Under the pieces are notes generated by a model that worked only from the letters and a program-made list of their open reading frames with translations, ran no database searches and was not told the DNA's origin. DNA of 64,000 nucleotides from a virus (Duplodnaviria > Caudoviricetes): the IMG/VR virus record IMGVR_UViG_3300020048_000009, positions 96,001 through 160,000 of that record; one strand, 5' to 3'. Numbering within the stretch: the stretch's first letter is position 1; every line of letters starts with the position of its first letter. Both the position numbers and the translations under genes were made by a program. Positions 1 through 44,400 of this stretch are shown piece by piece.

Positions 1-101
1 TATTATTAAAGGATTTATATATCTAAGAAAAGCCTATCCCATTGTATCTCCGTGAGATACTTAACCTATATTAAAAACACCAGTAAGAACTAATAAGTTC
101 A

Positions 102-131
102 GTGTATATTATAATAAGTATAAAGTATAAT
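102..131 (+). promoter_or_regulatory. Putative promoter GTGTAT-N18-TATAAT
   Basis: GTGTAT 102-107, 18-nt spacer, TATAAT 126-131, upstream of ORF 164; same architecture recurs 24 times in the window. Confidence 0.7.
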
Positions 132-163
132 ATTAACATCTTGAAACATTAAAGGATTATAGT

Positions 164-412
164 ATGATGCTTGCATGTATAACATGGTTCGGTTTAGGTT
201 TATGTGGTGCTCTCGTTTATCTATTAACATCTATTCACTGTATGTATATGGGTGAATCTATTACCATGGGTGATTTTCTACTTATGGCTGTTATAATTAT
301 TATGGGACCTCCTGCTTTTATAATTATAGGCTTTCTATGCATTCTCGCTGCTATACCTAATAATGAAAAGTTAAATAGATTTCTAGATAAAACAGTAATC
401 AAAGGAAAATAA
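164..412 (+). CDS. Small two-TM membrane protein (paralog family)
   Basis: Two hydrophobic segments; AAGGA SD upstream; resembles 423, 5821, 7869, 15966, 57120. Confidence 0.7.
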   Translation: MMLACITWFGLGLCGALVYLLTSIHCMYMGESITMGDFLLMAVIIIMGPPAFIIIGFLCILAAIPNNEKLNRFLDKTVIKGK

Positions 413-422
413 AAGGATTCAT

Positions 423-665
423 ATGATAACTTACTTCACCATATTACTCCTATTCGCGCCAGGTATCATCCTCGCCATAGTCTATACGTTTAGCTGCATT
501 CGTAAGAAGAAGCTTACATGGGGAGATCTGGCTATTATCATACTCAGTGCAGTCTTCGGTGTATATAGTACCATATTCGCAGGTGTAATCTATATGGGTA
601 ATCATCCTAAACGAATTAAAGAATTATGGAATCGTCCAATATGGACTAATAGACGAATCATTTAA
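423..665 (+). CDS. Small two-TM membrane protein (paralog family)
   Basis: Hydrophobic 80 aa ORF with SD; LTWGDL segment similar to ITMGDF in ORF 164. Confidence 0.7.
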   Translation: MITYFTILLLFAPGIILAIVYTFSCIRKKKLTWGDLAIIILSAVFGVYSTIFAGVIYMGNHPKRIKELWNRPIWTNRRII

Positions 666-754
666 GGTGTATTTATGTATGATTTTTTTATATTATATAT
701 CTATCTTATTTGTTATTAGTATATTCATCACACCAAACTAAAGGATTAAACAAT

Positions 755-829
755 ATGAGCATAATTACTGTCTATATCATCATAGTCATTTTCGCTTTGG
801 CTTTTAGTATTGGTCCTGATAAGCGATAA
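755..829 (+). CDS. 24-aa single-TM miniprotein (below ORF-track cutoff)
   Basis: AAGGA SD then MSIITVYIIIVIFALAFSIGPDKR-TAA. Confidence 0.5.
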   Translation: MSIITVYIIIVIFALAFSIGPDKR

Positions 830-861
830 CAGATATAAGGATTTAATAATAAAGGATTTAT

Positions 862-930
862 ATGTGGATTTATTTAATTTTAATAATAATTATCGGTGGA
901 TTAATAATGCAGTTTCACAGGAGATACTAA
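862..930 (+). CDS. 22-aa single-TM miniprotein
   Basis: AAAGGA SD then MWIYLILIIIIGGLIMQFHRRY-TAA. Confidence 0.5.
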   Translation: MWIYLILIIIIGGLIMQFHRRY

Positions 931-1149
931 CAATATGAAATATAACATGGATGATATAATCGATACACTAACACCTATGGAAATGGTAGAATTTTTAAAT
1001 AAGCTTCCTCTTCAGATTAACGTAGATGTAAATGCTAAAGCAACATTCTTTGGTAATATAAAGGGTGATGTTAAAGTAGAGCTTATCTATAAGGGTAATG
1101 TATTACAACAAAGAACTGAAAAAATTTAAATAAAACAGTAAATAATTAC

Positions 1150-1230
1150 ATGGGAATATTCATAGTAATTATTTGTATACTGCTCGCGCTAATAACCTTA
1201 AGCCTTATCATTAAAGAGATGATAGGCTAA
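1150..1230 (+). CDS. 26-aa single-TM miniprotein
   Basis: MGIFIVIICILLALITLSLIIKEMIG-TAA; weak SD. Confidence 0.35.
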   Translation: MGIFIVIICILLALITLSLIIKEMIG

Positions 1231-1269
1231 AATTTCAGTTAAAAATTAAAGAACTTTAAAAAGCAGACA

Positions 1270-1298
1270 TTACGCGCGAGAAGAAATTTACGCGCGAG
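1270..1298. repeat. Tandem 11-bp GC-rich repeat TTACGCGCGAG x2
   Basis: Copies at 1270-1280 and 1288-1298 in a non-coding AT-rich gap. Confidence 0.8.
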
Positions 1299-1320
1299 GA
1301 ATCTAGGAAAAGCACTCGGT

Positions 1321-1657
1321 CCATATTTTATATTCTTAGAAGGTAACTTTATATGAAAATAATTAAACGTGGTTTCTTCAATAAGGATATATATGAAGCA
1401 AATGGAAGGTATCCTATTGATAGAGGAGAGAATTATACCTTAGAAGATATACAGGGTATGTTTACTCTTGTATATAAGAAGGGTACTAAAGTAAATCTCT
1501 ATAATGATGGTGATAAAGAAGAGCCTCATTATTTCTGGTATCTTAATAAAGATGTTGATGGTGGTTGGTGGTCTGAAAGTGATTTCGTTAAAGCCAATAT
1601 TACTATTAAAGAATAGTTCCATATTTTATTTTCTTAAAAGAGGTAACTTTATATATG
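1321..1657 (+). repeat. Imperfect ~35-bp direct repeat preceding two ORF starts
   Basis: ccatattttatattcttagaaggtaactttatatg (1321-1355) vs ccatattttattttcttaaaagaggtaactttatatatg (1619-1657). Confidence 0.8.
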
Positions 1658-1846
1658 AATACTAGAGAGAGTGCATTACGTTGGTGGAGAGACCTAACTC
1701 ATTTACAGCAATGTGAATTGATTGGTAAATTTTTTCCAGGAAAATCTTTTATTGAAGTATCTACATCAAGCAGTAGAATCGAACAAATATTCTTAAAGGT
1801 AACTTTTTAAGTGTATTCTTATCCTTATACATGTTAATATCTATAT

Positions 1847-2071
1847 ATGAATATTCCAATACATATCTTATATAGATTTATGCAGACGATGATTGAACAT
1901 CCATTTCCTAGCATATGTAAGCATCATGTTTGTGTAAGTCTAATATCAGAGTTAGAACTTTCTGGTTATAAACTTACAGAAGATGAAACTTCTTTAGTGG
2001 TTTCTTTATGTGATAATAGTGCAGGTGATATTCAATCTCTTATTACTCTCGATAAATTATTAAAGGTTTAA
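1847..2071 (+). CDS. Hypothetical protein, close paralog of 3949..4173
   Basis: MNIPI.ILYRFM...LCDNSAGD.QSLITLDKL shared; preceded by GTGTAT-N18-TAATAT at 1811-1840. Confidence 0.8.
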   Translation: MNIPIHILYRFMQTMIEHPFPSICKHHVCVSLISELELSGYKLTEDETSLVVSLCDNSAGDIQSLITLDKLLKV

Positions 2072-2770
2072 TTAATATGTATGAAAATTCTAGAATATTA
2101 GAACCTAATGAAGAAGTAAAGAAAGGTGATTTAATTCTATTAGTAGGTAAGAGTTGGATTATTGCAATAGATACACCAGTTAAATATTTAGCTAAAGATT
2201 TTATAGAAGTAAGAAGAAGGAAAGAAGAGGTTTAAAGATTATGGTAGTAGTTGATATTGAATGTTTATTACATGTGGTGACATTATCGGAATTGTCATTA
2301 GTTTGTCCTATTGTTATGGAAAAATTTAGGAGTAATGATAAGTATTTCCATATCGATCAATATGTCAGAGAGAATGGTGCAACTGTATGTATAGATTTAA
2401 ATGAATGGTGGAATGTTTTACCTGGGAAAGAGAAGGTAGATATTATAAGTACTTTCCATAGAGAATATAGACAGAGGCAAAAGGATTGTGAATATTCTGC
2501 GGATCAATTGTTTGAATATTGTTATGATATTAAAGACTAGGAGAATATAGATATGTTATCAGAAGAACAATTAGAAGCTTTAAAGGATTTAAGAGATGCA
2601 GGTATCATGGATCACGGTACGATTTCTGATTGTGGTGAAGCGTGCAACTGTCCTGCTTCTAATTTTATGTCTAAAGAAAGATGTGAATGTGGAGCAGATG
2701 AACATAATGAGCATCTTAATAGGGTTTATGATAATGTTCTGAAAATACTTACTGCTAAAGAAGTCTAGAT

Positions 2771-3073
2771 ATGAATAAGTTTAGTGTAGGTGATAAAGTT
2801 AAGGTTGTTCAATATGCAGGACGTGATTCTGAGAATCACCGCTATTTTAAAATTGGTAACGTCGGGATTGTTAGACAGGTAAATCTTCGTGGTGTCGGTG
2901 GATATCAGGATATGTTATTTGTTGATTTTAATGATCCTTCTAATACATATATATTCGGAAATGGTTGTTGGTATGTTTATAATGAAAATAGTTTAAGGTT
3001 GGATACTATTGAAATTGATATATCAACTTTAGATGAAGATGCTTTAATCCCTCAGGAATTATATGAAAAATAA
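2771..3073 (+). CDS. SH3/KOW-like hypothetical, DISTLDEDALIP family
   Basis: FSVGDKVKVV N-terminus, RYF.IG, W.VY.E.SL and C-terminal DISTLDEDALIP shared with 6991 and 7307. Confidence 0.8.
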   Translation: MNKFSVGDKVKVVQYAGRDSENHRYFKIGNVGIVRQVNLRGVGGYQDMLFVDFNDPSNTYIFGNGCWYVYNENSLRLDTIEIDISTLDEDALIPQELYEK

Positions 3074-3948
3074 TATTTATAACGGAACGATTGAAATAGA
3101 GAAACACATCTATGGATATGAATGGTGGAGTAATAAAAAAGCTTTTCCTAAAGAAATAGATGAAATGCTAAAAGCTTATTCTGAGAATTATATTAAGACG
3201 TGGTATTATTGTAAGAAGACGTTTAGTAATGATTGTGATTTTGATTATGCTAATAATGGATATTTTCCTGGTATTGAGCGTTTTAATATTGAATTAATAG
3301 GATGGTTTGATGGTAGAAGAATTTCTTGGTGATAACTTATGGATGAATTATTAGAAGAGTTAAGTAAATGTGATAAGATTCTTACATCTTTAGCTGGAAG
3401 GTATTATAGTAATGATCCTTTAGCTTGGAGAGGTACTGTATCGGAAAGACTTTCTTATATAACGGATAATTTAATAAAAGATGTAGAAGAAGGTAGAGGA
3501 AATGGATGATACCTTTATGTGATAGAACTTATGAGACTTGTCAAGTATGGGATGATCCTGAAATGTATGACGATGATATTGTAGGAACATCTGTTGCTGA
3601 AAGTAATGCTTTGATTAGAGATTGTGAATATTGTAGAGATTGTCCCTTTCATTTTAGAAATGCAACGTTTACACCTCTAAAGGAATAGTTTATATGAAAT
3701 TAATTTATGTATCAGAGAATCATTCTACTCCTATTTGTGCACAAACAAGTAGTGGTATATCTATTCTTTTATATTGGTTAATTCAGGATAGAGATATTGG
3801 GAAAATTGTTAAATTTAATACTTGTTCACATTCTGTAGAAATTGGACAAGTTGGTAAAATCTTAGTTCATAATAGAACAGCTGGAACAATTGCTATTATT
3901 GATTCTATGTAGGTGTATTATCATTATTTCTTTTGATATTATTTATAT

Positions 3949-4173
3949 ATGAATATTCCAATAGATATATTATATAGGTTTATGAAAACCATAGTTAAGC
4001 ATCCTGGTCCACATGCATGTAAGCATTATGTATGTGTTACTCTTATATCAGAGTTAGAACGTTCTGGTTATAAACTTTCAGAAGATGAAATATCTTTAGT
4101 TCATTCTTTATGTGATAATAGTGCAGGAGATGAACAGTCTCTTATTACGCTTGATAAATTAATAAAGGCTTAG
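3949..4173 (+). CDS. Hypothetical protein, close paralog of 1847..2071
   Basis: Colinear, mostly identical to 1847; preceded by GTGTAT-N18-TATTAT at 3913-3942. Confidence 0.8.
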   Translation: MNIPIDILYRFMKTIVKHPGPHACKHYVCVTLISELERSGYKLSEDEISLVHSLCDNSAGDEQSLITLDKLIKA

Positions 4174-5325
4174 GTGATATTATGGATGACTGGGAACGTA
4201 CTTTATTAAAGGCAATGCATGAGAGGGATATGAATGATCCTGTTTATAAAGAGGGTTTCGAATCGGAGTGGGAGTTAAACCCTTATGTATTTCCAGAAGA
4301 GTTGAGCGATGCTAGAACGAGAATTGCCTGTTTAGACCGGGCTCTTACATCAGAAGAAAAAGAAAAATTGTTTTTTCTTGGGAGAGACTTCGATGCGACT
4401 GATTGGAATAGATGGTCAAAGGGTTTTTATAGGAGAAATCTTTTTAAGAAAATGGAGTAATATGAAAATAAATGATTTATCAGTAACGGATATAACAAAT
4501 CTTCTAAAATTTTCTCCTATTTCAAGGGAGCTACATCAAATTTTAATTAAAAGAATTGATGAGATTAAAAGTGACCTTATTAAAGAAGATCGGGATAAAG
4601 GCTTATGAAAATTAAAGCTCCTAGAAAAGTAAAACCCTTTATAACAACTGAATATATTGTAGGATGTCCTAATAGATATTACTTTATAATTTATGTGAAT
4701 AAAAGAATCTCACCATTGAAAAGTAAATATTATACTTCTAAAAAAAGTGCAACGAACGCATTAAATAAAGTATTGAAGTATTATAATTTAATAGATGAAA
4801 CTGTTTTAGATTTTAGTACTACAAAATGACACAGATAGAAATAATTTCCGAGTTACTTAAGATTATACGAGATCCTATTAAGGGTGCCAATTTATCTATT
4901 AAAGATATGGCGATAACTGAGGAGGCCGATCTGATTGTTAAGAACGCTAAGGATTCTCTTATATGAGCACATATTATCAGCAACTTGGTAAAGCTTCTAA
5001 TGCTAAAAATAAAAGATGTCGGAGAGGTAACGAGTCTAGAAATAATATCTTTGATGAACCTTGGAAACAATTTATACCTAGTCACATTTCTAAAAGAATT
5101 ATTAAATTTAGAAAATTAAAGGAGTCTAAATGAAAGAATTAAAATTAGTACTTGAAAGTTGCAAAGGTTGTCCTTATCTTACATGGGAAGAGAATAATGG
5201 ATGTGGAAATTATGCTGGCTGGAGTCATTGCAACAAGAAGAATCAACATATTGAAAGAAATACTATGTATCCAGAATTCCCTGTATGGTGTCCATTAACC
5301 GATAAACCCAAAGCGTAGGAAATTT

Positions 5326-5499
5326 ATGAAGGATATTTTTAAACAATTGATGCATGATAATTGTGGTGTTGGTGGTATAAAATGCTATTGCTGTAATGAT
5401 TGGAAAGGTAAGGCTAGAAAAGGTTTGAATAGAATTGTTCGAGCTATGTTAAAGCAGCATGACCTAAAAGAAAATATCAGAGAGCAAGAAAAAGATTAA
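5326..5499 (+). CDS. 57-aa Cys-cluster protein (not in ORF track)
   Basis: AGGA SD; MKDIFKQLMHDNCGVGGIKCYCCNDWKGKARK...; fills gap between 5318 and 5543. Confidence 0.55.
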   Translation: MKDIFKQLMHDNCGVGGIKCYCCNDWKGKARKGLNRIVRAMLKQHDLKENIREQEKD

Positions 5500-5542
5500 C
5501 GTAATAGTGTATTTATCGAAGAGTATTTGTTAGTATTTATAT

Positions 5543-5794
5543 ATGAGTATTACAAGTAGAAAGTTAACATCTGAAGATAGAATACCTTTATATAGAATAT
5601 ACGGCCATATGTATGAATGGACGAGCGGTATGGCCTCTAAAGGAATTCGGGATGGTGATGTAACTATTAACGGTGTTGTAATTACAGATGATAAGTTCTT
5701 AGTAAAAGACGGTGATAAGATATGTGAATCTAAAGGTAAGGAATATGTTATAGAAATTCCTTCTTATTGGAGACAGAGTTGTAATACAAAATAG
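5543..5794 (+). CDS. S4-like RNA-binding domain protein
   Basis: TSGMASKGIRDGDVTINGVVITDDKFLVKDGDKI fits the S4 pattern (S..A...I..G.V.VNG......V..GD.I). Confidence 0.65.
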   Translation: MSITSRKLTSEDRIPLYRIYGHMYEWTSGMASKGIRDGDVTINGVVITDDKFLVKDGDKICESKGKEYVIEIPSYWRQSCNTK

Positions 5795-6054
5795 ATTTTT
5801 AGAAAAGAAAGAGAGAAATTATGATAGAGTTATCAATATACTTTGGGTGCGGCCTGTTGGCATTTATAATTTGGTTTATATTATGTAAGATTGAAGGTTC
5901 TACTATTAAAGAATTACTTTTAGGTTTTTTATTTTTTGCATTGGGATATGTTGGGCTTATGCTTCTTTTAGGTGTAACTATTTGTGTTACTGTTGACCAA
6001 TATATAGTAGGTAATCCTAAATTTCAGGCATGGTTAAATAAAAAGATTTAAAAT

Positions 6055-6924
6055 ATGAAGTTAAAAGATTACGTTGATAATTCAATTTTGTATTATCCCA
6101 GTTTATATAGAGCTCATAATTATGAAGACTCTAGGCTTCTTGTATTGGATCATATATTTCTAACAATTGGTAATGGCTTAGAATGGCATAAAGATGGTTT
6201 TATTACCGAATTGGGATATAGGGGAAAATATAATACAAAGTATAAAGCCAAAAAGATTCCCGAAAATTTCTTTTCTGATGATTTATGGGAATTGCATTTA
6301 CTTAAAGAACATTTAAAAGAAGTAAAGAAATTGTTGAAGGGTTATTATTCTTATATATTAAGAAATGGACATACTAAAATAACATTAGCTTTTCTATGTA
6401 ATGATATGTCTTTAGTTAATTCCATTTTCTTGAAATATGATATTAAAACTAGTATGGAAATTTGTTTAGAAAAGTTTTTGAAAGAAAATCAAATTGAAAA
6501 AACAAGAACACCTAGAAAGTTTCAAGTTAATAAAGAAGAAGAACATACGCCTTACCCGATGTGTCATTATAGTGCTATTGTAGAAATGATTAATAGGAAG
6601 ACGGAGTCTCTACATATAACAAATTTTGGTTTAGTTAATATCCAGCCTGATTATATAGAAGGTGCATTGGATGCTGCTAAAAGGGCATTAAGATTTTATA
6701 AAGATCCTGAAAAAAATAAACTGGACCATTACCATCCGTCGAAATCATTAAAAGGCTTTAAAGAATTTTATGAAACAGATCCTGAGAAATTTAGACGTGA
6801 AAGAGTAAAAGATGGAATGTTACCAGAACATACGATTGAGCAATGGTGTCAGATTTGTTGGGAGAAACATCTTGTTGAACAAATAGGTTATTGTGAGAAG
6901 CTTATTGAGATGTATGGAAAATAA
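6055..6924 (+). CDS. Hypothetical protein (289 aa)
   Basis: Long uninterrupted ORF; no motif recognised. Confidence 0.75.
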   Translation: MKLKDYVDNSILYYPSLYRAHNYEDSRLLVLDHIFLTIGNGLEWHKDGFITELGYRGKYNTKYKAKKIPENFFSDDLWELHLLKEHLKEVKKLLKGYYSYILRNGHTKITLAFLCNDMSLVNSIFLKYDIKTSMEICLEKFLKENQIEKTRTPRKFQVNKEEEHTPYPMCHYSAIVEMINRKTESLHITNFGLVNIQPDYIEGALDAAKRALRFYKDPEKNKLDHYHPSKSLKGFKEFYETDPEKFRRERVKDGMLPEHTIEQWCQICWEKHLVEQIGYCEKLIEMYGK

Positions 6925-6937
6925 TATTATATCTTAA

Positions 6938-6967
6938 GTGTATTATTTTGTTTGAATTACTTATAAT
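6938..6967 (+). promoter_or_regulatory. Putative promoter GTGTAT-N18-TATAAT
   Basis: Exact motif upstream of ORF 6991. Confidence 0.7.
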
Positions 6968-6990
6968 GTAAGTACTTAAAGGCTTATTAT

Positions 6991-7305
6991 ATGAGTAGAT
7001 TTAAAAGGGGTGATAAAGTTAGAGTTGTTTGTTATGCCGGTAATGATACTGGTAATACAAGATATTTTAGTATAGGTGATATTGGAGTTGTTGAGTTTAT
7101 CGAGGTTATCGGTATAAAAAACCCGAGTATGATACAGGTTAATTTTAATGACCCATCAAATAAAAAAATATATCAAAAGGGTATATGGTACGTATATTGT
7201 GAAGATAGCTTAGAATTTCATGGTAAATACGATAAAATTGATATTTCAACTCTTGATGAAGATGCGTTAATTCCTGATGTATTATATAAACAGGAAATAA
7301 AATAA
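6991..7305 (+). CDS. SH3/KOW-like hypothetical, DISTLDEDALIP family
   Basis: MSRFKRGDKVRVV...DISTLDEDALIP. Confidence 0.8.
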   Translation: MSRFKRGDKVRVVCYAGNDTGNTRYFSIGDIGVVEFIEVIGIKNPSMIQVNFNDPSNKKIYQKGIWYVYCEDSLEFHGKYDKIDISTLDEDALIPDVLYKQEIK

Positions 7306-7306
7306 C

Positions 7307-7615
7307 ATGAGCCGATTTAAAAAAGGTGATAAAGTTAGAGTTATACAATTTGCAACTCCTGATATTGGTAATAATCGATACTTTAGTATTGGTGATATCG
7401 GAATTGTTATGGAGTCAAATGTTCATGCTCGAGGTTTAATATTGACGGATGTTAGTTTTAAGGGGCAGGGAAATAAAAATGTTATAGACGGCGGTAGATG
7501 GTGGGTTTATTGTGAAGATAGTTTAGCGTTAGTTTATGATTTTAAATTTGATATTTCGACTCTTGACGAAGATGCACTTATACCAGAGGAACTTTATAAA
7601 AAAGGAGAAAATTAA
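7307..7615 (+). CDS. SH3/KOW-like hypothetical, DISTLDEDALIP family (tandem copy)
   Basis: MSRFKKGDKVRVI...DISTLDEDALIP. Confidence 0.8.
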   Translation: MSRFKKGDKVRVIQFATPDIGNNRYFSIGDIGIVMESNVHARGLILTDVSFKGQGNKNVIDGGRWWVYCEDSLALVYDFKFDISTLDEDALIPEELYKKGEN

Positions 7616-7616
7616 T

Positions 7617-7859
7617 ATGAAACGTTGCGGATTTACTATTGTTGAGTTTATGATTATTGTTGCTATTCTTGGAATACTTTTAGCTATTATTATTCCTAAT
7701 GTTATGGTTTCTAATAATACTCCTTCTTCTTTTTCTAAAAATGTTAAGGATAGCGGAAAATTTACCTGTAACGATCATTCATATCTTAAAATTGAATATC
7801 AAACCACTGCAACAATTGTACATGATCCTGATTGTGGTAAATGTAATGTGGAAAAATAA
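7617..7859 (+). CDS. Prepilin-type N-terminal cleavage/methylation-motif protein with C-terminal HDPDC motif
   Basis: AAGGAG SD at 7602-7607 favours ATG 7617 over the track's 7536; MKRCG|FTIVEFMIIVAILGILLAIIIP is a class III signal (G|FTxxE). Confidence 0.75.
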   Translation: MKRCGFTIVEFMIIVAILGILLAIIIPNVMVSNNTPSSFSKNVKDSGKFTCNDHSYLKIEYQTTATIVHDPDCGKCNVEK

Positions 7860-8127
7860 GAGGAATTTATGTTTTTATTATATAGTTTTATTATAGGATA
7901 TATTGCGGCTGGAATAATTTCTTGTGTTTTGTATTATGAAGGCGAAAAGAAAATGTCACTAGAAATGGAACATGAATATTGTATATTTAATTATTGTGAT
8001 TTATTTTTAATTATAGTAATTTTTATATTAGGTTATATTTCTTTAATAGCATCTATTGGGATTATTCTTTGTAGCTATAGTGATAAGGAAGCATTTAGAG
8101 TTAAAGTAAAATAAAGGAAATAAATAA

Positions 8128-8625
8128 ATGAAAACTGCTGGAAATTGGATTAAGGTATTGGATCTTTCTACTCTTAAAGTAGGAGATATTGTTAAGTATT
8201 GTAGTCTTGAGGGTAATAAAAAGTATTGGTGTGGTGATGGTACTACAGCTGGTGGTGGTGGTCGAGTTGTTTTTTATATTGATGAAAAAAAAATTAAAAC
8301 CTGTAACCCTGATGATGTAGACCAGAATTTTATGTCTGAGCTTATTAATGATGAATGGTCTGAGGTTTATGTTTGGGTTTCTGATGAACAAAATAATGTT
8401 GAAGAAGTAGTACTTGATATTAAAAAGTCTTCTGCGAAAATAGCAACAATTCATATTGAAAGAGGATGTGATGAATATTGTTGGCTTATTGAATTACCAT
8501 TTAAGTCTAAACCTATATTTGAATCGGCTGGTTTTTATAATAGAAAGTATGATGCTATTAGAGCAGCCGTAAAGGTTTGTAAGCAATTGGGTATTTTATA
8601 TACAGTAAGCAAGGAATTAGTATAA
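8128..8625 (+). CDS. Hypothetical, GNW..V / AIRAA..C..LG paralog family
   Basis: N- and C-terminal motifs shared with 10949, 17817, 19807. Confidence 0.75.
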   Translation: MKTAGNWIKVLDLSTLKVGDIVKYCSLEGNKKYWCGDGTTAGGGGRVVFYIDEKKIKTCNPDDVDQNFMSELINDEWSEVYVWVSDEQNNVEEVVLDIKKSSAKIATIHIERGCDEYCWLIELPFKSKPIFESAGFYNRKYDAIRAAVKVCKQLGILYTVSKELV

Positions 8626-8918
8626 ATAGTGACTATATTCTATAACAATGGAAAAACTCTGGCAATATTTACCAAGAACGAAAATGGTAAATATGTCGGA
8701 GATTTTACTTGTTATTGGTTTAATGGGAATTTATGCGGTATGTGTTCATATCATGCTGATGGATCTGAGAAAAGAGTTGGCATGTATGAATACTATACAT
8801 TTGAAGGGGATCTTTATAAAAAAGGATCATTTGATAGTAATGGAAAAAATGAAAAAATATATTTTTCTTTAAATCCTTTGGATAAAATTTGTAAAGATTA
8901 ATACTATTAGGAATTATC

Positions 8919-9461
8919 ATGAGTAAAAAATTTGAAGATTTACCACAAGAATATAAAGATCTTGTTCAGAAGATTAAAGATGCAAGGGTTGAAACGGAAA
9001 AGACCAGAACTAAAGAGGTTGAAGCTCAGAATACCGAAACCGAATTTAAAGAATATTGTAATATTGAGTTTTCTCCCTTATTAAAGGAATTATCAAAGAT
9101 TGCTTTAGAATATAAGAAACATCTTAAAGCCCAAGAAGAACATGCAGCAGCTCAGAAAAAATTATATGGTAAGCATATTGATGGTGAATATCGTTATTAC
9201 TGGGAAAAATGTGAAAACTGTCATGGTAACGGAAGTATTCGTGTTGGTACTGGTCATTATAAACATCAGGGTGATTCTGATTCAGAAGGATTTTATATTG
9301 AATCTGAAGTAATGGAAGATAGAACTTGTACTAAATGTAGTGGTTCTGGGGGCTTTATTAAATATATCAAAGGTGGTTCAGTATGGGAACAACAGAAACC
9401 TTGTAGTATTTATCAGTTTGAACGAAATCAAGATGATTTTCTAAAAATTATATTAGATTAA
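8919..9461 (+). CDS. Coiled-coil protein with DnaJ-type CxxCxGxG zinc-finger pair
   Basis: CENCHGNG and CTKCSGSG motifs; charged helical N-terminus. Confidence 0.65.
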   Translation: MSKKFEDLPQEYKDLVQKIKDARVETEKTRTKEVEAQNTETEFKEYCNIEFSPLLKELSKIALEYKKHLKAQEEHAAAQKKLYGKHIDGEYRYYWEKCENCHGNGSIRVGTGHYKHQGDSDSEGFYIESEVMEDRTCTKCSGSGGFIKYIKGGSVWEQQKPCSIYQFERNQDDFLKIILD

Positions 9462-9469
9462 TAAAAGAA

Positions 9470-9862
9470 ATGTTGGTTAGTATGTTTGAATTTTTTATGA
9501 CTCTAGGCTTTATATGTTTCTTTGGGGTATTTATATTTATTTTAGCTATAATGTTCGCAGAGAGATCTGAAAATATTCCTATATATTTTCTTGGGATATT
9601 TTTCTGTTTATTATTTGGTATTATGTTTGTAGTAGGATCAGAGCAATTTTTGCAGATTGATACTATCAAAGAAGAGATTCCTATTGAATTTATTAAAAGA
9701 ACTCCTGATGGTGTTATTAATGTTTATGGCAACGGTGTATGTGTACGGTCAGAATTAGCATCTCATTATATTGCATCTTCAAATAATCTAGCTATCATGA
9801 GATATAAAAAAGTAAGAAACAATACAGTTCTTAGTTATTCTAATGTATTAGAGCTTAAATAA
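9470..9862 (+). CDS. Two-TM membrane protein with small soluble C-domain (paralog family)
   Basis: Similar layout to 12122, 20207, 45005. Confidence 0.65.
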   Translation: MLVSMFEFFMTLGFICFFGVFIFILAIMFAERSENIPIYFLGIFFCLLFGIMFVVGSEQFLQIDTIKEEIPIEFIKRTPDGVINVYGNGVCVRSELASHYIASSNNLAIMRYKKVRNNTVLSYSNVLELK

Positions 9863-10948
9863 AAAATTAGAATAAAAATATTAAATACATTATTCATATT
9901 GAATAGTGTATTTCATACTTTATAAAGGCTATTATATTAATATCTTAAATGACATTAACTAATGTATAAAGGATTTTATGATAATTAATAATATTGAAGA
10001 AGCCCAAGCTTTAGTGAATAGAGTTTTAGTATTCAATAAAAAGGTAGAAAATACGGAAACCGATTTTGATGTCGGGATGAAAGCTCTTGTAACAGGTGTT
10101 TATTTAAAAGATGATATTTTGCATATTAATTTAGATTTTTCAAAATTTGAAGAATATAATAAAACATTAATGCAATCGACATACTGGGATAAAGAAGGAA
10201 AGCCTACACTTAAATGGTGTGAAACTCCTTATTATCCTAAAGACTGTAAAACTACAGAATATTGTGCACTTTATGATGATGAGCAATGTCCGTTTGATGT
10301 AGAAGATACATCTCCACTTTTTAGATATTCGGTACAAGAGTTAATTGATGAATTAAAATCTAGAAATGTTATGTCATTTGATGAGTCTGGATATGTTATT
10401 CAATCTATTAATGAGGAGAAATAATATGCCTGATAAAAAACCACAAGTGAAATATGTTACCGTTAAGCATGATGGATATGTTTTTCATATTAATTCTAAC
10501 AGTTTCTATAAAACCCCTGTACATGTTGGAACTGCCCCTATCGGTTGGTATAATGATTATAATGGATTTTTACAGATAATTTATAGGGATAGTGTTTATG
10601 GTGCTGCTGTTACAAGAAAAATGCCGGCTAAAGAAGAATAGGAGTATATTTATGAAGAAAATAATTGTATTGTTTGTTTGTTTAATGTCACTGTGTGGTT
10701 ATTGTAATTATAATACCCAACAAGTTGTTCTAGTTAATTGTGTTGGTTCTCCTGATATTACATTTCTTTCTAAATGTTTGAGTGAGGGGTGGAGAATTGT
10801 AAATTCAACTCCTATTACAAACTCTAAAAGAGAGCATTCTATAAGTGGACCAATATCTATAGTATATACTTCGTACATTATATACATTATTGAAAAAGAA
10901 GTTATAGAAGATCGTGCAACTGAACATAAAAGAACCGGGAAATAATTT

Positions 10949-11434
10949 ATGGCAAAAAATATTAAAGATGCTGGTAAATGGGTTATCGTTAAAAATTCTA
11001 AAAATCTTAATGTTGGTGATAGGATCCGATATTATGATTCTTCATTTAAATATGGATATACCGATAGCTCTATGGGTATTAATAGGCATAGATTTGTAAA
11101 ACAAATTTTTGAAGAAAATGAAGTATCTTCTGCTGATGAAACAGGCAGGATAACATGTAATGATATTTTTAGAAATGGTTTTACTAAAATTGAAGTATGG
11201 GTGCCATCAGGAAATGTTAAAAAGTTGAGAAACGATAATAAAGAAAAAACACTTATCATATCTATTCATAAATGTTCTGGTAAATATTCACTTCAAATTA
11301 AGTTTCAATCTTCTATTGAAATTTATGGATATTCACCATATAATTATCGTTTAAAGCATAAAGCAATAGAAGCTGCAGAAAAATTTTGTAATGAATTGGG
11401 TTTAATCTGTATCATCGAAGATAAAAGCGAATAA
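10949..11434 (+). CDS. Hypothetical, paralog of 8128
   Basis: AGKWVIVK...LNVGDRIRY...Y.LKHKAIEAAEKFCNELG. Confidence 0.75.
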   Translation: MAKNIKDAGKWVIVKNSKNLNVGDRIRYYDSSFKYGYTDSSMGINRHRFVKQIFEENEVSSADETGRITCNDIFRNGFTKIEVWVPSGNVKKLRNDNKEKTLIISIHKCSGKYSLQIKFQSSIEIYGYSPYNYRLKHKAIEAAEKFCNELGLICIIEDKSE

Positions 11435-12058
11435 TATTATGACAAAAGAACAAATTATAGAAAATTTTCAAAAGGCTATTCAAGGTAGACTTGATAATGC
11501 CATTTCTTATCAGAATAATCTGTATTTTGATAAGCTTTTAGAATTTTGTAATACTGATTATGGGTATTTATTATTTTTTCCTATTGCAAAAGGTTATTTC
11601 AATTGTGGTATTCAATTTGACCATTTTTGTGAATTATTCGACAGAATTGATTATGCTTGCACTGATTGCGGCATGATGCTTTGTCATGTTGTTACTGAAT
11701 ACGCATTTACTAAAGACCCTGTATTTATTAAAAGATTTAATGTTGATCCCATCCTGCAATATAAAAATACTTTTATCTTAAATCGTGATTACAATGATTA
11801 TAATAAAGAAGTTGTTTTAGAAACAGCCATAACCCATTTCAATTATGAAAAACATACTTTAAAAGAAATTCATTCTACTCCAATGAATTATGCTCTTATA
11901 GATTTTCTATATAGTATTATTCCAGATATTAAAAACTTTAAAGAATTATCTAAGCTTGATGATAACGGTGAAGCTTCCATGAAAGCTGAAAAACTTTTAG
12001 AACAAAAAATAGTAGATTATATTAAAAACGCTAAATTTTATTATGTTCAAAGGTTTTA

Positions 12059-12088
12059 GTGTATTAGTATATTAAGTTTTGTTATAAT
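12059..12088 (+). promoter_or_regulatory. Putative promoter GTGTAT-N18-TATAAT overlapping the upstream TAG stop
   Basis: Exact motif; G of TAG (12059) is the first base. Confidence 0.7.
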
Positions 12089-12121
12089 AGGTTTTTATTA
12101 AATTAATAAAGGAGAGTTGTT

Positions 12122-12550
12122 ATGATGACGTGTCATTTTGTTTGTATGGGTTTGATATTTTTTGGTTTATTTTTAATGACTATTGATTTTATATTATTTT
12201 CTAATGCTGTTGGAAATCCTGATAGTCGAGATGTTGCAGTAACCGGTGTGATGATTATACTTTTTACTCTCATTTTTGGTTTTGGTATGTGGTGCACATG
12301 GGCAACCCAAAGATATGAGATTAAAGAAATTGAGCCGACTGAAATTGTTAGATTTAAAGATAGTCTAATTGTTAAATATGAAAGATCTAGACTTGAAGAT
12401 GATACCGTACGTATTTATAATGCTGATGATAAAGATATAGTAATTATTAGAAAGATCGCATATAATTCTTATAATTGTCGGAGCTATTTTGATTATGATG
12501 TACTTGGAATCAGATCAAATAAAGTTCAAAATGTTGAGAAGTCAAAATAA
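12122..12550 (+). CDS. Two-TM membrane protein (paralog of 9470)
   Basis: Two N-terminal TM segments, EIEPTEIVRFKDSLIVKY...IYNADD. Confidence 0.65.
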   Translation: MMTCHFVCMGLIFFGLFLMTIDFILFSNAVGNPDSRDVAVTGVMIILFTLIFGFGMWCTWATQRYEIKEIEPTEIVRFKDSLIVKYERSRLEDDTVRIYNADDKDIVIIRKIAYNSYNCRSYFDYDVLGIRSNKVQNVEKSK

Positions 12551-12989
12551 TGAAACTGTATATTTTATATAGAGGTAGGAGTAAGAGTAATTTAAAGCCG
12601 ATAATGATTGATCGTATAGAAAAGGTCGATAATTATTATAAGACATTAATTAAATCTGATCCTGGAAGCGGTAAGACTTGGCATTATGATATTCAAATGG
12701 CACCTTCTGATGCAGAAGTCTGGAGAAAGAATAATAATTCTAATCAATGGACTAACTATAATTCGTCTAATCCACCTAAAGTAAAAAATGGAAGTAGGTT
12801 TTAAATGTTAAGTATTGAACAACTAAAAAAATTAAGTACTCAGAGACTTGTTGCCTATAAAAGAAAGTATTTTCCTAGAGAAATTGGAAATCCTTTTGAA
12901 TACCAAAAAGAATATAATGCATATCATGCTGCAATTAAAAATATTCTAAAGACCAGGGGACATGTTAAAAGAAAACATGAAAAAGCTTA

Positions 12990-13019
12990 GTGTATTATTT
13001 TTAATGTTTTTTATATAAT
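12990..13019 (+). promoter_or_regulatory. Putative promoter GTGTAT-N18-TATAAT
   Basis: Exact motif overlapping the TAG stop of ORF 12805. Confidence 0.7.
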
Positions 13020-13198
13020 AACATTATTAAAAGGATAATTATGAATGTACGAAAAACAAATAAAAAGATATTAGCCGCATGGTTTGAATATAAAGAAATG
13101 CCTAATGTTTCAGATAGATTAAGCGTGCCTTCTTTTGTTGCTGGTTATCAGTTTGCAATAAGAGATCAAAAGCGAAAAGTTTCTAAAAAGAAATAATT

Positions 13199-13477
13199 AT
13201 GTCTGAATTATCAAAAAGTAGAGTTGTTTGTGCCGCCTGTAGAAATAAAGCAGGAGTTATTGTTTGTGGTCCTAGACATTTAGATGGAACCATGAGGGCT
13301 TTGTTTACTTTAACGGGTGGAAGAGATGCTTGGCTTTCTTGTGAACAAGGTTTTGTAGATCAGCATGGTAAATTTCTTACCAGAGAAGAAGCCCATATTA
13401 TTGCAACAGAAAATAATCAATTTTATAGACATTGTGGCGGTGATAAAGAAACACTTTATTCTGAAAATCTTTATTAA
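13199..13477 (+). CDS. Conserved phage-type hypothetical protein
   Basis: GPRH.D...EQGFVDQHGKFLTREEA pattern; function unknown. Confidence 0.7.
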   Translation: MSELSKSRVVCAACRNKAGVIVCGPRHLDGTMRALFTLTGGRDAWLSCEQGFVDQHGKFLTREEAHIIATENNQFYRHCGGDKETLYSENLY

Positions 13478-13820
13478 TAAGAGAAAAACATTATGAAAGA
13501 TAAAATGAATTGGATTTTTGTGGCTGTTTTGGTTACCTTTGGTATATTGTTTTATTTTCAGGGAATTCAATATTCTAATATAACTGAATTGGAAACTGAA
13601 TTTAAAGCGCATTCCCATCATATTGAAATAAATCTTGATACTGGTAGAGTAACAGAACATTATGAATAAAAAAGAAGATAGTGAACTTTTAATGTATTTT
13701 GAAAGAAGTAGTGGTTATCCTGGATATAGATGTCAAAGATGTGGAAAATGGGAATATCTACAAGACGCATCAAAGCATAAATGTCCAGAACAAACTTCTT
13801 CAAATAACAAATAAAGTTCA

Positions 13821-13850
13821 GTGTATATTGTGAAGTAAAATATGCATAAT
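13821..13850 (+). promoter_or_regulatory. Putative promoter GTGTAT-N18-CATAAT
   Basis: Upstream of the 13887/14193 membrane operon. Confidence 0.65.
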
Positions 13851-13886
13851 ATGTATATTAATTGATTAAATGTAAGGAGTATAAAA

Positions 13887-14162
13887 ATGAAGGCATTGAA
13901 GGTCGTACTATGGGTTATGGTTATTTCTGGTGGTTTGCTATTTAGCAATATTTGGACAAACGCTCTAGAACCCCATGTTTTAGCTGATGCATCTATTGCC
14001 GCTGTTAATGGCAAGGATGGGGACGCAATGAAGCTTAATATACTTCAAACGAATAAGCATGTTGGGGCAAAGGTTGGTGGTGTTGTAATGATGATTGGTA
14101 TCATCGGAATTCTCTGGGTATTGTGCCCAAAGAAGGGTGAAGGTCAAAAGACGGTAGTATAA
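13887..14162 (+). CDS. Two-TM membrane protein upstream of SPFH gene
   Basis: AAGGAG SD; two hydrophobic helices. Confidence 0.75.
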   Translation: MKALKVVLWVMVISGGLLFSNIWTNALEPHVLADASIAAVNGKDGDAMKLNILQTNKHVGAKVGGVVMMIGIIGILWVLCPKKGEGQKTVV

Positions 14163-30225: not shown

Positions 30226-30286
30226 GGGTATGTAACTCAATTGGTAGAGTCATTGTGTATTGCAGGTTCGACCCCTGTCATATCCA
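30226..30286 (+). ncRNA. tRNA-like element lacking the anticodon arm
   Basis: Acceptor GGGTATG/CATATCC+A, TA, D-arm ACTC-AATTGGTA-GAGT, only 11 nt (CATTGTGTATT), T-arm GCAGG-TTCGACC-CCTGT; no encoded CCA. Confidence 0.75.
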
Positions 30287-41809: not shown

Positions 41810-42355
41810 ATGAAAAATGATAAGAAAACAATAGTTGTAAATCTCTACGGTGGACCGGGTTCTGGTAAGTCTACCCTTATGGCGAGTATATTTTCAGAAT
41901 TAAAGCTTAATGGAATTAATTGTGAGATGGCACCTGAATTTGCTAAAGAAAAGGTATGGGAAGGTTCGTTAGATATTTTAGCAAATCAACTTTATATTTT
42001 TGGAAAACAGCATCACACTATTTTTAGACTTTTGGGTAAAGTGGATGTAATTATAACGGATTCACCTATTATTCTATCTTTATACTACGGAAAGAATTGT
42101 AGTAATACATTTAAGAAATTAGTATTAGAGGAATATGCTAAATTAAATAATATTAATTTTTTTGTAGACAGAATTAAGAAGTATAATCCAAAGGGAAGAC
42201 TTCAAACAGAGTCTGAAGCAAAACAAATTGATAAAGAACTTTTATCAATTTTAAGTAAAAACAATATACATGCCGTTCATGTAGAAGGCGGACGAAAAAA
42301 CATTAAATGGATATCTAAAAGTATAATAGATATTATTAAAAAGGAAATAATATGA
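41810..42355 (+). CDS. NadR/Ttd14-type AAA (AAA_28-like) P-loop kinase
   Basis: NLYGGPGSGKST, PEFAKE, ITDSP; 4-nt overlap with thg1. Confidence 0.78.
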   Translation: MKNDKKTIVVNLYGGPGSGKSTLMASIFSELKLNGINCEMAPEFAKEKVWEGSLDILANQLYIFGKQHHTIFRLLGKVDVIITDSPIILSLYYGKNCSNTFKKLVLEEYAKLNNINFFVDRIKKYNPKGRLQTESEAKQIDKELLSILSKNNIHAVHVEGGRKNIKWISKSIIDIIKKEII

Positions 42356-43134
42356 ACAAGGATTCACTAGGCGATCGCATGAAAAATTTTGAGTCAGTAA
42401 CCGCAACAAAACTAATTAGTAGAATGCCCGTAATTTTACGGCTTGATGGTAAAGCATTCCACACATTTACCAAGGGTTTTGATAAACCTTTTGATACTCT
42501 ACTATCAGATACGATGATTGAAACTACACTTGAATTAGTTTCAACTATTCAAAACTGTCAAGTTGGATATGTTCAATCAGATGAAATTTCATTACTTCTT
42601 GTAGATGATAAGCACCTTAATACTTCTTCTTGGTTTGATAATAAGATTCAGAAGCAAGTATCGGTTGCGGCATCGATGTGTACTTTAACTTTTAATACTA
42701 TTTTTCTATCAAAAGTTATATCCCTATCAAAAGTAGAAGATATGACAGAAGAAATGTTTAAAAAAGTTGATATGTATAATGGTAAAATTTGTTCTGCGCT
42801 TTTTGATTGTAGAGCTTTTAATATTCCAAAAGAAGATGTATGTAACTATTTTATCTGGAGACAGCAAGATGCAACTAGAAATTCTATTCAATCTCTAGCA
42901 CAAGCTAATTTTAGTCCTAAACAACTACATGGCCTAAGTTGCAATAAGCTTCAGGATAAACTTTTCGCAGAAAAGCAAATTAATTGGAATGATATTTCTA
43001 CAACAAATAAAAGAGGAACATGTGCAGTAAGAAATTTTAAAAATGGACCTGCTTTTATTATTGATCGTGAAATTCCTATCTTTTCTCAAGATAGAACGTA
43101 TATCGAAAAGCTTGTTAATATTAGAGAGGATTAA
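42352..43134 (+). CDS. thg1: tRNA(His) guanylyltransferase/Thg1-like protein
   Basis: LGDRMK.FE, RLDGKAFHTFT, YVQSDEISL, FD.RAFN.P, YF.WRQ.DA.RNS. Confidence 0.93.
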   Translation: MNKDSLGDRMKNFESVTATKLISRMPVILRLDGKAFHTFTKGFDKPFDTLLSDTMIETTLELVSTIQNCQVGYVQSDEISLLLVDDKHLNTSSWFDNKIQKQVSVAASMCTLTFNTIFLSKVISLSKVEDMTEEMFKKVDMYNGKICSALFDCRAFNIPKEDVCNYFIWRQQDATRNSIQSLAQANFSPKQLHGLSCNKLQDKLFAEKQINWNDISTTNKRGTCAVRNFKNGPAFIIDREIPIFSQDRTYIEKLVNIRED

Positions 43135-43540
43135 TTATGTCTGATGGTGATTATGCTTTTCCATTTGACCCAGAATCAGAAAAACGTCGAATGAAACAAT
43201 TAGAAATTAATCAAAAATTTTTATTAGATGCAATTTTTGAAATTCATGATAATCTGTGTCCTAAACAATACGGAACATGGCAAGATAAAGTTAAACAATC
43301 AGTTGAAGCTTCTAAAAAATTAAAAAAGGATTAAAATGGACGCAAAATTAGAAATAACATATTTGGATGATAATACTGGACATGAAAGAACTATTACATT
43401 AAATACTATAACATGTTCAGAAGAATTTTATAATGATGTTAATGCGGTTTTAAAAGATAAACCTGTTACATGTAGATTAGCATTGCGATAATTTTATAAT
43501 TATTAATAAATAAAATAGAATATTCATAAGGAGAAAATAA

Positions 43541-43585
43541 ATGAATAACGATAAAGTTAAATGTTAGGTGCTTAAACCACCATAA
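43541..43585 (+). CDS. Leader mini-ORF with internal amber codon and Pro-Pro-stop end
   Basis: AAGGAG SD 43528-43533; ATG AAT AAC GAT AAA GTT AAA TGT TAG GTG CTT AAA CCA CCA TAA. Confidence 0.7.
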
Positions 43586-43646
43586 TCCTATTAGTGTTGA
43601 AAAATGACTGATTAATGTAAAAAACAAACAAACTAATAAGGATTAT
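43582..43646 (+). promoter_or_regulatory. Anti-SD/SD helix (putative translational attenuator)
   Basis: ATAATCCTATTAGT (43582-43595) is complementary to ACTAATAAGGATTAT (43632-43646; one bulge), which holds the AAGGA SD of ORF 43651. Confidence 0.65.
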
Positions 43647-43650
43647 AAAA

Positions 43651-43953
43651 ATGAGAAAAATAGACGAATTAAAGTTAAAGAATAAAGAAACAAGTAAACA
43701 ACTTAGAGAAAGAAATCTCAAGTTAAAAGAGAACCAGAAGCAAGGTAAATGTTGTAGTAATGAAATGTGTTCATTGTATTATGCTAGAAAAGAATATAGA
43801 CATTATCACATTGCCTATTGTGAGTTAAGAGGTAGAACTAGGGATCAGATTGAAAAACCTAGACGTGGTAATGAAGTAAACGAACAGCTTATTCAAAATA
43901 TTAAAAATGAATATGCATGGGAAATTCTCGATACTGGAGCAAACAATGAATAA
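43651..43953 (+). CDS. Hypothetical basic protein in the amber module
   Basis: Charged helical N-terminus; RHYHIAYCELRGRT..QIE.P; overlaps the Pth2-like start by 8 nt. Confidence 0.8.
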   Translation: MRKIDELKLKNKETSKQLRERNLKLKENQKQGKCCSNEMCSLYYARKEYRHYHIAYCELRGRTRDQIEKPRRGNEVNEQLIQNIKNEYAWEILDTGANNE

Positions 43954-44242
43954 ATTATATGTTTTAGTGAGAAAAGATTTATCTACATCTTATCAAGCGG
44001 TTCAAGCTGGTCATGCTGTGGCGGAATGGTTACTTCAAAACCATTAGGGTTCCGAATGGAAAAATAATACATTAATATATTTAGGTGTAAAAGATTTAGA
44101 TGATCTTAATCACTGGATGGAAAAACTTAAATATAAAAATATAGAATTTTCAGCATTTAAAGAACCTGATATTGGAAATGAAATAACAGCAATCGCATGT
44201 TTAAATGATGGTAAATTATTTTCCAGTCTTAGATTATTATAA
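43946..44242 (+). CDS. pth2: Pth2-like peptidyl-tRNA hydrolase with in-frame TAG at codon 34 (44045-44047)
   Basis: GGAG SD; KLYVLVRKDL...QAVQAGHAVAEW before the TAG and W.N.TLIYL...F.EPDIGNE.TAIA after it, same frame, ending TAA 44240-44242; missed by ORF track. Confidence 0.82.
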
Positions 44243-44245
44243 AAC

Positions 44246-44322
44246 GGCACTATAGCTCAGTGGTTAGAGCGGGAATCTCTAAAATTCTGTCCGCATGGGT
44301 TCGAATCCCATTAGAGCCGCCA
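44246..44322 (+). tRNA. Amber-suppressor tRNA (anticodon CUA)
   Basis: Acceptor GGCACTA/TAGAGCC (A:A at pair 4), D-arm GCTC/GAGC, anticodon arm GGAAT-CT CTA AA-ATTCT, T-arm ATGGG-TTCGAAT-CCCAT, G discriminator, encoded CCA. Confidence 0.9.
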
Positions 44323-44366
44323 AATTTATATAAGTTCCACTCCAGTGGAAAAAGTTAAACAAAAAG

Positions 44367-44400
44367 AAAAAGTTAAGGTATATTTTACCTTAACTTTTTT
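44367..44400 (+). terminator. Hairpin terminator after the tRNA, overlapping the next promoter (44378-44407)
   Basis: AAAAAGTTAAGGTA-TATTT-TACCTTAACTTTTTT. Confidence 0.75.

Follow-up and report, generated by a model that had tools for sequence, protein, structure and literature searches.

A UAG-reading phage tRNA as the last gene of a putative read-through-gated operon

We analysed a 64-kb stretch of viral DNA (the window, bases 96001-160000 of a 211,678-bp IMG/VR viral contig with a G+C content of 29.8%) and found a tRNA with the anticodon CUA as the last gene of an operon at 43541-44400 on the + strand. To judge from its cloverleaf, its anticodon and its covariation, this appears to be a genuine UAG-reading tRNA, and as a tRNA it is ordinary. 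We think it probable that it is a functional amber suppressor, charged by the host, which serves both as an input to and as a product of an operon gated by read-through. Its demonstrable clients are most likely the two UAG codons of this operon, and not a recoded genome. The arrangement is unusual, conserved and apparently undescribed; a search of the open-text literature gave no description of a Pth2-like gene or a leader that is gated by a phage's own suppressor.

The operon consists of a leader, a hairpin, an open reading frame of 100 codons (ORF100), a Pth2-like gene, the tRNA gene and a terminator:

43529-43534, + strand: Shine-Dalgarno sequence AAGGAG of the leader ORF, read directly, 6 nt before the ATG at 43541
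43541-43585, + strand: leader ORF M-N-N-D-K-V-K-C-UAG-V-L-K-P-P-UAA, with TAG at 43565-43567, Pro-Pro codons at 43577-43582 and TAA at 43583-43585
43582-43646, + strand: predicted hairpin pairing the leader stop region with the ORF100 ribosome-binding site (AAGGA, 43638-43642), MFE -19 kcal/mol
43651-43953, + strand: ORF100, a basic helical protein of 100 aa, of no known family
43946-44242, + strand: Pth2-like gene, 98 codons long, interrupted in frame by a single TAG at codon 34 (44045-44047)
44246-44322, + strand: tRNA(CUA), with the anticodon at 44279-44281, a G discriminator and an encoded CCA (ARAGORN, Rfam)
44366-44400, + strand: intrinsic-terminator-like hairpin, a 15-bp stem followed by a T run, which closes the operon

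The tRNA and the genetic code of the phage

ARAGORN made a single tRNA call in the 64-kb window, at 44246-44322 on the + strand with the anticodon cta at position 34, and the Rfam tRNA model RF00005 scored this sequence at 61.2 bits (E 8e-11), the gathering score being 29 bits. In the ARAGORN structure drawing, the acceptor stem has 7 bp with a single mismatch (A4:A69), the D-loop has 8 nt and contains GG, the 5-bp anticodon stem carries the 7-nt loop CUCUAAA, the variable region has 6 nt, and the T-loop is TTCGAAT. The canonical cloverleaf, the CTA at 44279-44281, the encoded CCA, the G discriminator and the 6-nt variable region named in the original prediction were all seen. ARAGORN labels the gene 'Pyl', a label that reflects its CUA anticodon and nothing else. 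A tRNA-Pyl would have a small D-loop without GG, a 3-nt variable loop, a 6-bp anticodon stem and an atypical T-loop; given the 8-nt D-loop with GG, the 6-nt variable loop, the 5-bp anticodon stem and the TTCGAAT T-loop, this identity was rejected, and the drawing bears out the earlier statement that tRNA-Pyl hallmarks are absent. Folded alone, the sequence has an MFE structure that is not a cloverleaf (z -0.35), which is usual for tRNAs and no argument against the gene.

Related tRNA(CUA) genes (n = 44) fit one cloverleaf, with compensatory changes at 19 of 21 base pairs. A near-identical strain is represented in a lake-water metagenome of a separate study; its sole change within the tRNA, A>G at 44295, turns an A:U pair of the T-stem into G:U, so that pairing is retained. 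Because of the compensatory changes and this pair-preserving change, we take the tRNA to be more than a chance match. Mismatches of the acceptor stem recur in the family alignment only at pairs 4:69 and 5:68, as U:U, A:A or U:C (the window, Yersinia phage fHe-Yen9-04, and loci L013, L015 and L019). A gene for a Thg1-like tRNA-His guanylyltransferase lies 1.1 kb upstream of the tRNA (window 42352-43134, + strand; PF04446, 101.6 bits; phrog_4717), and so near a tRNA bearing the A4:A69 mismatch; no change is listed at the 4:69 pair in the lake strain.

All 47 distinct sequences of the tRNA(CUA) family are of class I and all have the anticodon CUA. The loop CUCUAAA, which is the anticodon loop of efficient laboratory amber suppressors, is found in 36 of the 47, G1:C72 in 42 and an encoded CCA in 33. 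For 44 of the 47, the nearest neighbour is another member of the family and not any isotype of the same phages; the nearest neighbours outside the family are of the Thr, Ile or Gly types, which is uninformative as to origin. The 24 other tRNAs of the contig are at most 68% identical to tRNA(CUA). When IMG/VR was searched with the D-arm plus anticodon arm, any anticodon being allowed, the Yersinia phage alone matched: over these two arms, the window tRNA and the tRNA-Sup-CTA of fHe-Yen9-04 share 36 identical nt.

The amino acid carried by the tRNA was called uncertain at the outset and is still so, as discriminators differ across the family. The E. coli GlnRS rules call for U35, G73, a weak 1:72 pair, G2:C71 and G3:C70. 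Among these elements the window tRNA has U35, G73 and G2:C71, while its G1:C72 and C3:G70 are unlike the E. coli rules. Suppressors of the Su7 type, derived from tRNA-Trp, have G73, the loop CUCCAAA with C35 changed to U, and A1:U72; the window tRNA agrees with these in G73 and the loop, and has G:C at 1:72. On balance, glutamine, through recognition driven by U35, is our tentative first choice for the residue inserted at UAG, and lysine, by the same route, is an unlikely one. Across the family the discriminator base varies (15 A, 15 G, 15 U and 2 C), and we read this scatter as a sign that no specific amino acid may be needed.

The contig is about 84% complete (CheckV) and comes from a giant freshwater phage, distantly T4-like, its large terminase being 31-33% identical to those of T4-like phages. 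Its 24 other tRNA genes, none of them for Trp or Tyr, are clustered at 83-93 kb, and the CUA tRNA stands alone 47 kb beyond this cluster. The cluster has some odd members, which lie outside the window: a tRNA(UUU) with a long variable arm, a long-arm ACU tRNA and a tRNA(AAA) without CCA (contig G000:C1:87030-87114, 92990-93081 and 85041-85115). A tRNA-like element within the window (30226-30286, + strand) scored 41 bits with the Rfam tRNA model and was not called by ARAGORN; its acceptor, D and T arms are intact, with about 10 nt in place of the anticodon arm, and it is followed by TCA, not CCA.

The phage uses the standard code, in which TAG is a stop like any other. When stop-to-stop ORFs of 100 codons or more are counted, coverage of the contig is 84.6% under code 11, 89.0% with TAG as sense and 88.1% in a TGA control. 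The genome-wide comparison of code 11 and code 15 densities that had been proposed as a check on the original prediction gave, then, no TAG-specific gain (0.846 vs 0.890; TGA control 0.881), and recoding of the contig by code 15 (TAG to Gln) was rejected, the gain with TAG being no greater than that of the control. The view that most TAGs are real stops stands: in a crude set of 320 genes, 258 end in TAA, 35 in TAG and 27 in TGA, and structural and packaging genes are intact under code 11. Eleven of the 35 TAG-terminated genes lie at window positions 1-14000 (genome 90-110 kb), a region made up of very small ORFs of the + strand. TAG-ending genes were no different from others in how far away their next in-frame stop lies (Mann-Whitney p 0.69).

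In the contig, 16 frames are 120 codons or longer and contain an in-frame TAG flanked by two segments of 50 codons or more each. A PHROG search with the read-through products of 10 of the 15 such frames outside the operon found no domain that spans the TAG. A radical-SAM gene (genome 165719-167146) was rejected as a TAG target, the gene simply beginning after the TAGs. The suggestion that the tRNA might serve recoded genes outside the window did not hold up, as the only homology-supported in-frame TAGs in 212 kb lie less than 700 nt upstream of the tRNA. Searches of the contig for an RF-1 domain, GlnRS/GluRS, YqeY and GatB found none; with no release factor or GlnRS/GluRS of the phage's own found, host factors must serve.

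The leader, ORF100 and the Pth2-like gene

With an alignment of the Pth2-like protein as the query, IMG/VR yielded 55 related loci, 53 of them distinct, at 40-67% identity and on contigs of up to 315 kb. At 44 of the 53 distinct loci the first tRNA downstream of the Pth2-like gene is a CUA tRNA, at a median distance of 22 nt.

We defined the leader pattern as ATG, no more than eight codons, TAG, further codons, CCN-CCN and a stop. It occurs once in the 64-kb window, both strands included, and at the matching relative position in 27 of the 53 loci, compared with one match in 625 kb elsewhere. A purine directly follows the leader TAG in all 30 matches to the pattern; a purine after UAG is a context that favours suppression. 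The leader ends with K-P-P-stop in the window and with RGPP, RPP or KPP in relatives, and the K-P-P of the window differs from the proven arrest motif R-A/G-P-P.

In the hairpin at 43582-43646 (z -3.57; none of 200 shuffles folds as well), the leader stop lies within the 5' arm and the ORF100 ribosome-binding site within the 3' arm. In 20 of 22 distinct loci that have the leader, folding pairs the ribosome-binding site with sequence no more than 20 nt from the leader stop (mean z -3.2), and this pairing is predicted despite the sequence divergence among the loci. Folding thus predicts the hairpin of an attenuation leader for the window and for 20 of the 22 loci.

ORF100 had no match in Pfam or PHROG. 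Its AF2 model (pLDDT 89.8) is a helical hairpin with two further helices, and a comparison with PDB folds gave no match. A homologue lies directly 5' of the Pth2-like gene at about 40 of the 55 loci and is fused to it in at least nine. At one locus (L036:2698-3309), ORF100 and the Pth2-like gene share one frame with only a TAG between them, and read-through there would produce the fusion that is encoded directly elsewhere.

The Pth2-like gene begins in overlap with the stop of ORF100, and 3 nt separate its TAA from the tRNA. The match to Pfam PF01981 (24.2 bits, cutoff 23) spans the in-frame TAG, as do over 200 full-length homologues, which are 96-98 residues long. The closest of these, at 96% identity, has Gln at the position of the TAG, as do several others. 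In the lake strain, which differs at six other positions of the region, both this TAG and that of the leader are kept. Comparison with homologues indicates that codon 34 is an in-frame UAG of a conserved gene that needs decoding. An AF2 model of the protein reached a pLDDT of 93.5, and its best 14 PDB matches are all Pth2 structures (TM 0.69-0.80); model and sequence together assign the gated neighbour a Pth2 fold and membership of PF01981. Within the model, the TAG maps to the loop of lowest confidence, where homologues vary and have gaps. The UAG site would lie, then, in a flexible loop in which any residue should do. Hydrolase activity is not assured, because the Pth2-like protein has Tyr16 in the alignment where the Pth2 GK motif has its Lys; the Asp of K-D-A-G in 24bt aligns with the invariant Glu73 of the Pth2-like protein.

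Among the 53 distinct loci, eight Pth2-like genes have exactly one internal TAG, and internal TAA and TGA are found in none; a count over 54 Pth2-like genes gives nine with an internal TAG. In five of eight TAG-bearing relatives, the TAG is in the same loop as in the window gene. A minority of genes carry this second gate, which seems on this count to be optional. TAG-recoded Lak phages and other huge phages have Pth2-like homologues as well. In Prevotella phage Lak-B4, a tRNA with the anticodon UUA (L074:1344-1416) lies about 600 nt upstream of a Pth2-like gene that has no internal TAG.

Downstream of the tRNA, two terminator-like sites were found, which are the same hairpin on both strands, compared with 0.2 expected in shuffles.

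A possible mechanism and its alternatives

We propose that one transcript runs from the leader through the terminator and that the tRNA is released from its 3' end. If there is no suppression, ribosomes that translate the leader would halt at the UAG after eight codons, and the hairpin would keep the ribosome-binding site of ORF100 shut. Charged tRNA(CUA), in competition with RF1, would carry them over five more codons to Lys-Pro-Pro-UAA. Slow termination or arrest is known for Pro-Pro-related motifs (PMC7897499, PMC10951233, PMC12992588) and, since termination after Pro-Pro is slow, ribosomes would be expected to dwell there, occupying the 5' arm of the hairpin and freeing the ribosome-binding site. 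This would allow translation of ORF100 and, by translational coupling, of the Pth2-like gene, which needs a second read-through at codon 34. With two UAG gates, protein output would therefore rise steeply with UAG read-through, and the tRNA would be the signal that is sensed as well as a product of the operon. Of this scheme, the sequences show the tRNA gene and the UAGs, the conservation of gene order and leader pattern, the predicted hairpin and the standard code; charging, the stall and the switch itself are inferred.

What the ORF100/Pth2-like pair does is the least secure part of this explanation. It is possible, though we would not rely on it, that the pair hydrolyses suppression-linked aminoacyl- or peptidyl-tRNA and so limits or cleans up read-through. 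Somewhat more doubtful is a closed-loop controller, in which a hydrolase made in proportion to suppression acts on the aminoacyl or peptidyl form of the suppressor or on ribosomes stalled by read-through. Were this the case, suppression would be held at a set level in any host, and the operon would be a portable unit that lets standard-code phages carry a suppressor safely; it could be a stepping stone to code 15 phages.

TAG, the stop of 35 among about 320 phage genes, has not been purged, and this counts against strong suppression; because of these 35 genes and the lack of any enrichment of back-up stops, strong suppression would have side effects. The A4:A69 mismatch of the acceptor stem, the K-P-P end of the leader and the small share of Pth2-like genes with an internal TAG also weigh against the explanation. 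The benefit of suppression to a standard-code phage is left unaccounted for by a self-gated operon, and a sensor is most sensible when there is something else to control. The main purpose of the tRNA might instead be read-through elsewhere, extending TAG-ended proteins of phage or host or disturbing host termination, with the gates of the operon merely tuning or buffering it. Such read-through would add a median of 7 residues to the products of the 35 TAG-ending genes, and Pth2-like homologues are found in Lak phages, where suppression is needed genome-wide. We nevertheless judge this purpose unlikely, as ten candidates gave no product with homology beyond the TAG, the varied discriminator of the family argues that no particular amino acid is required, and, for 18 amber stops of XacN1, the authors of that genome likewise found no such product (PMC5852040).

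Three further alternatives fare much worse. A tRNA(CUA) is typical of phages recoded from TAG to Gln (10.1101/2021.08.26.457843), and with a contig 84% complete by CheckV, the tRNA could be the switch of a late-gene programme of the code 15 type whose recoded genes lie in the missing ~16% of the genome. The ORF coverage of the contig (0.85 for code 11, 0.89 with TAG as sense, 0.88 for the TGA control) and its structural and packaging genes, intact under code 11, make this very improbable; nor do the 53 related loci gain specifically from reading TAG, their coding density being 0.879 under code 11, 0.945 with TAG read and 0.941 in the TGA control. Decay, with the TAG of the Pth2-like gene as a nonsense mutation and the tRNA hitch-hiking or dying, could have arisen by a single C-to-T change from CAG to TAG, and the 96%-identical relative does have Gln at this site. 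It is hard to credit, however, in a family whose internal stops are eight TAG, no TAA and no TGA, whose tRNAs show compensatory changes at 19 of 21 pairs and whose leader TAG pattern is conserved, and the TAG is retained in the lake strain despite six differences elsewhere in the region. If the tRNA had no part in decoding, it might serve as a decoy or a spare against host defences that target tRNAs. This would fit nearby RNA-repair genes such as the Thg1-like gene 1.1 kb upstream, and is scarcely plausible given that hosts have no CUA tRNA to mimic, that every one of the 47 family members has the anticodon CUA and that matching in-frame UAGs adjoin the tRNA.

An operon gated by its own suppressor is our preferred reading. 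The regulatory role that the original prediction had offered as one option is the best account of the tRNA, with the UAGs of its own operon as the candidate targets. Suppressor tRNAs of standard-code phages have repeatedly been described without any identifiable target (e.g. XacN1, PMC5852040), and this locus and its relatives offer a concrete and conserved client, the early UAG of a leader peptide and of a Pth2-like gene in one operon with the tRNA. If the switch works, it would be a natural device for sensing stop-codon read-through, with a tRNA, an arrest-type leader and a hairpin as its parts, and a new layout of translational control; it may also be a missing link in the evolution of alternative phage codes and a part for synthetic amber-suppression circuits. 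The gate is directly testable, since phages that have it are in culture (Yersinia fHe-Yen9-04, Xanthomonas XacN1 and Stenotrophomonas RAS14).

Comparison with known systems

Like the laboratory amber suppressors supE, supF and Su7, the window tRNA has CUA in a CUCUAAA loop and a class I cloverleaf. Unlike them, it is no recent anticodon mutant of a resident tRNA, 44 of the 47 family members being nearest to each other and not to any isotype of the same phages.

The code 15 crAss-like and Lak phages (10.1101/2021.08.26.457843, PMC9523058) likewise have a phage-borne CUA tRNA that is charged by the host and competes with RF1. The likeness to TAG-to-Gln recoded phages drawn in the original prediction goes this far and no further: the conserved operon is found mostly in standard-code phages. 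In contrast to code 15 phages, the window genome and most of its relatives use the standard code, and there are just two in-frame UAGs, both in the operon of the tRNA.

In the autoregulation of prfB (RF2), too, an early in-frame stop sets output by its decoding, and the decoding factor is linked to the locus. The read-out differs: UGA frameshifting in prfB, and in the window suppression by a tRNA, with ORF100 and the Pth2-like protein as the products.

Arrest and attenuation leaders (ermCL, SecM and the RAPP/RGPP peptides ApdA/ApdP; PMC7897499, PMC10951233, PMC12992588) resemble the window leader in being short upstream ORFs that end in (R/K)-(G)-P-P. As in those systems, a ribosome stalled on the window leader would, on the predicted fold, open a hairpin over the next ribosome-binding site. 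Unlike in those systems, the putative stall site, a Pro-Pro-stop with the motif K-P-P, is reached only by read-through of a UAG.

The 'orphan' suppressors of standard-code jumbo phages (XacN1, PMC5852040; fHe-Yen9-04) are genes of the same kind as the window tRNA. XacN1 was reported to have two CUA suppressors without targets (PMC5852040). In fHe-Yen9-04, the Pth2-like gene (L070:1483-1812) starts M-S-H-UAG (ATG-TCT-CAC-TAG), 3.1 kb upstream of the annotated tRNA-Sup-CTA. The next gene overlaps it (L070:1809-2375), contains one in-frame TAG and is homologous to the HD-like N-terminal domain of XacN1 ORF364. ORF364 itself (L072:1440-2300) and its counterpart in Stenotrophomonas phage RAS14 (L075:1440-2300) are HD-like/Pth2 fusions that begin M-K-UAG; the frame opens with M-K-TAG-T upstream of the annotated start, and in RAS14 there is no later ATG ahead of conserved sequence. 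Another XacN1 gene, the glutamyl-tRNA amidotransferase-like ORF360, lies 1.2 kb upstream of the fusion. The fusion is a candidate target of the two 'orphan' CUA suppressors of XacN1. No target was reported for XacN1 or fHe-Yen9-04, whereas here, and in those genomes when re-read, a Pth2-like gene with an early UAG is the candidate target.
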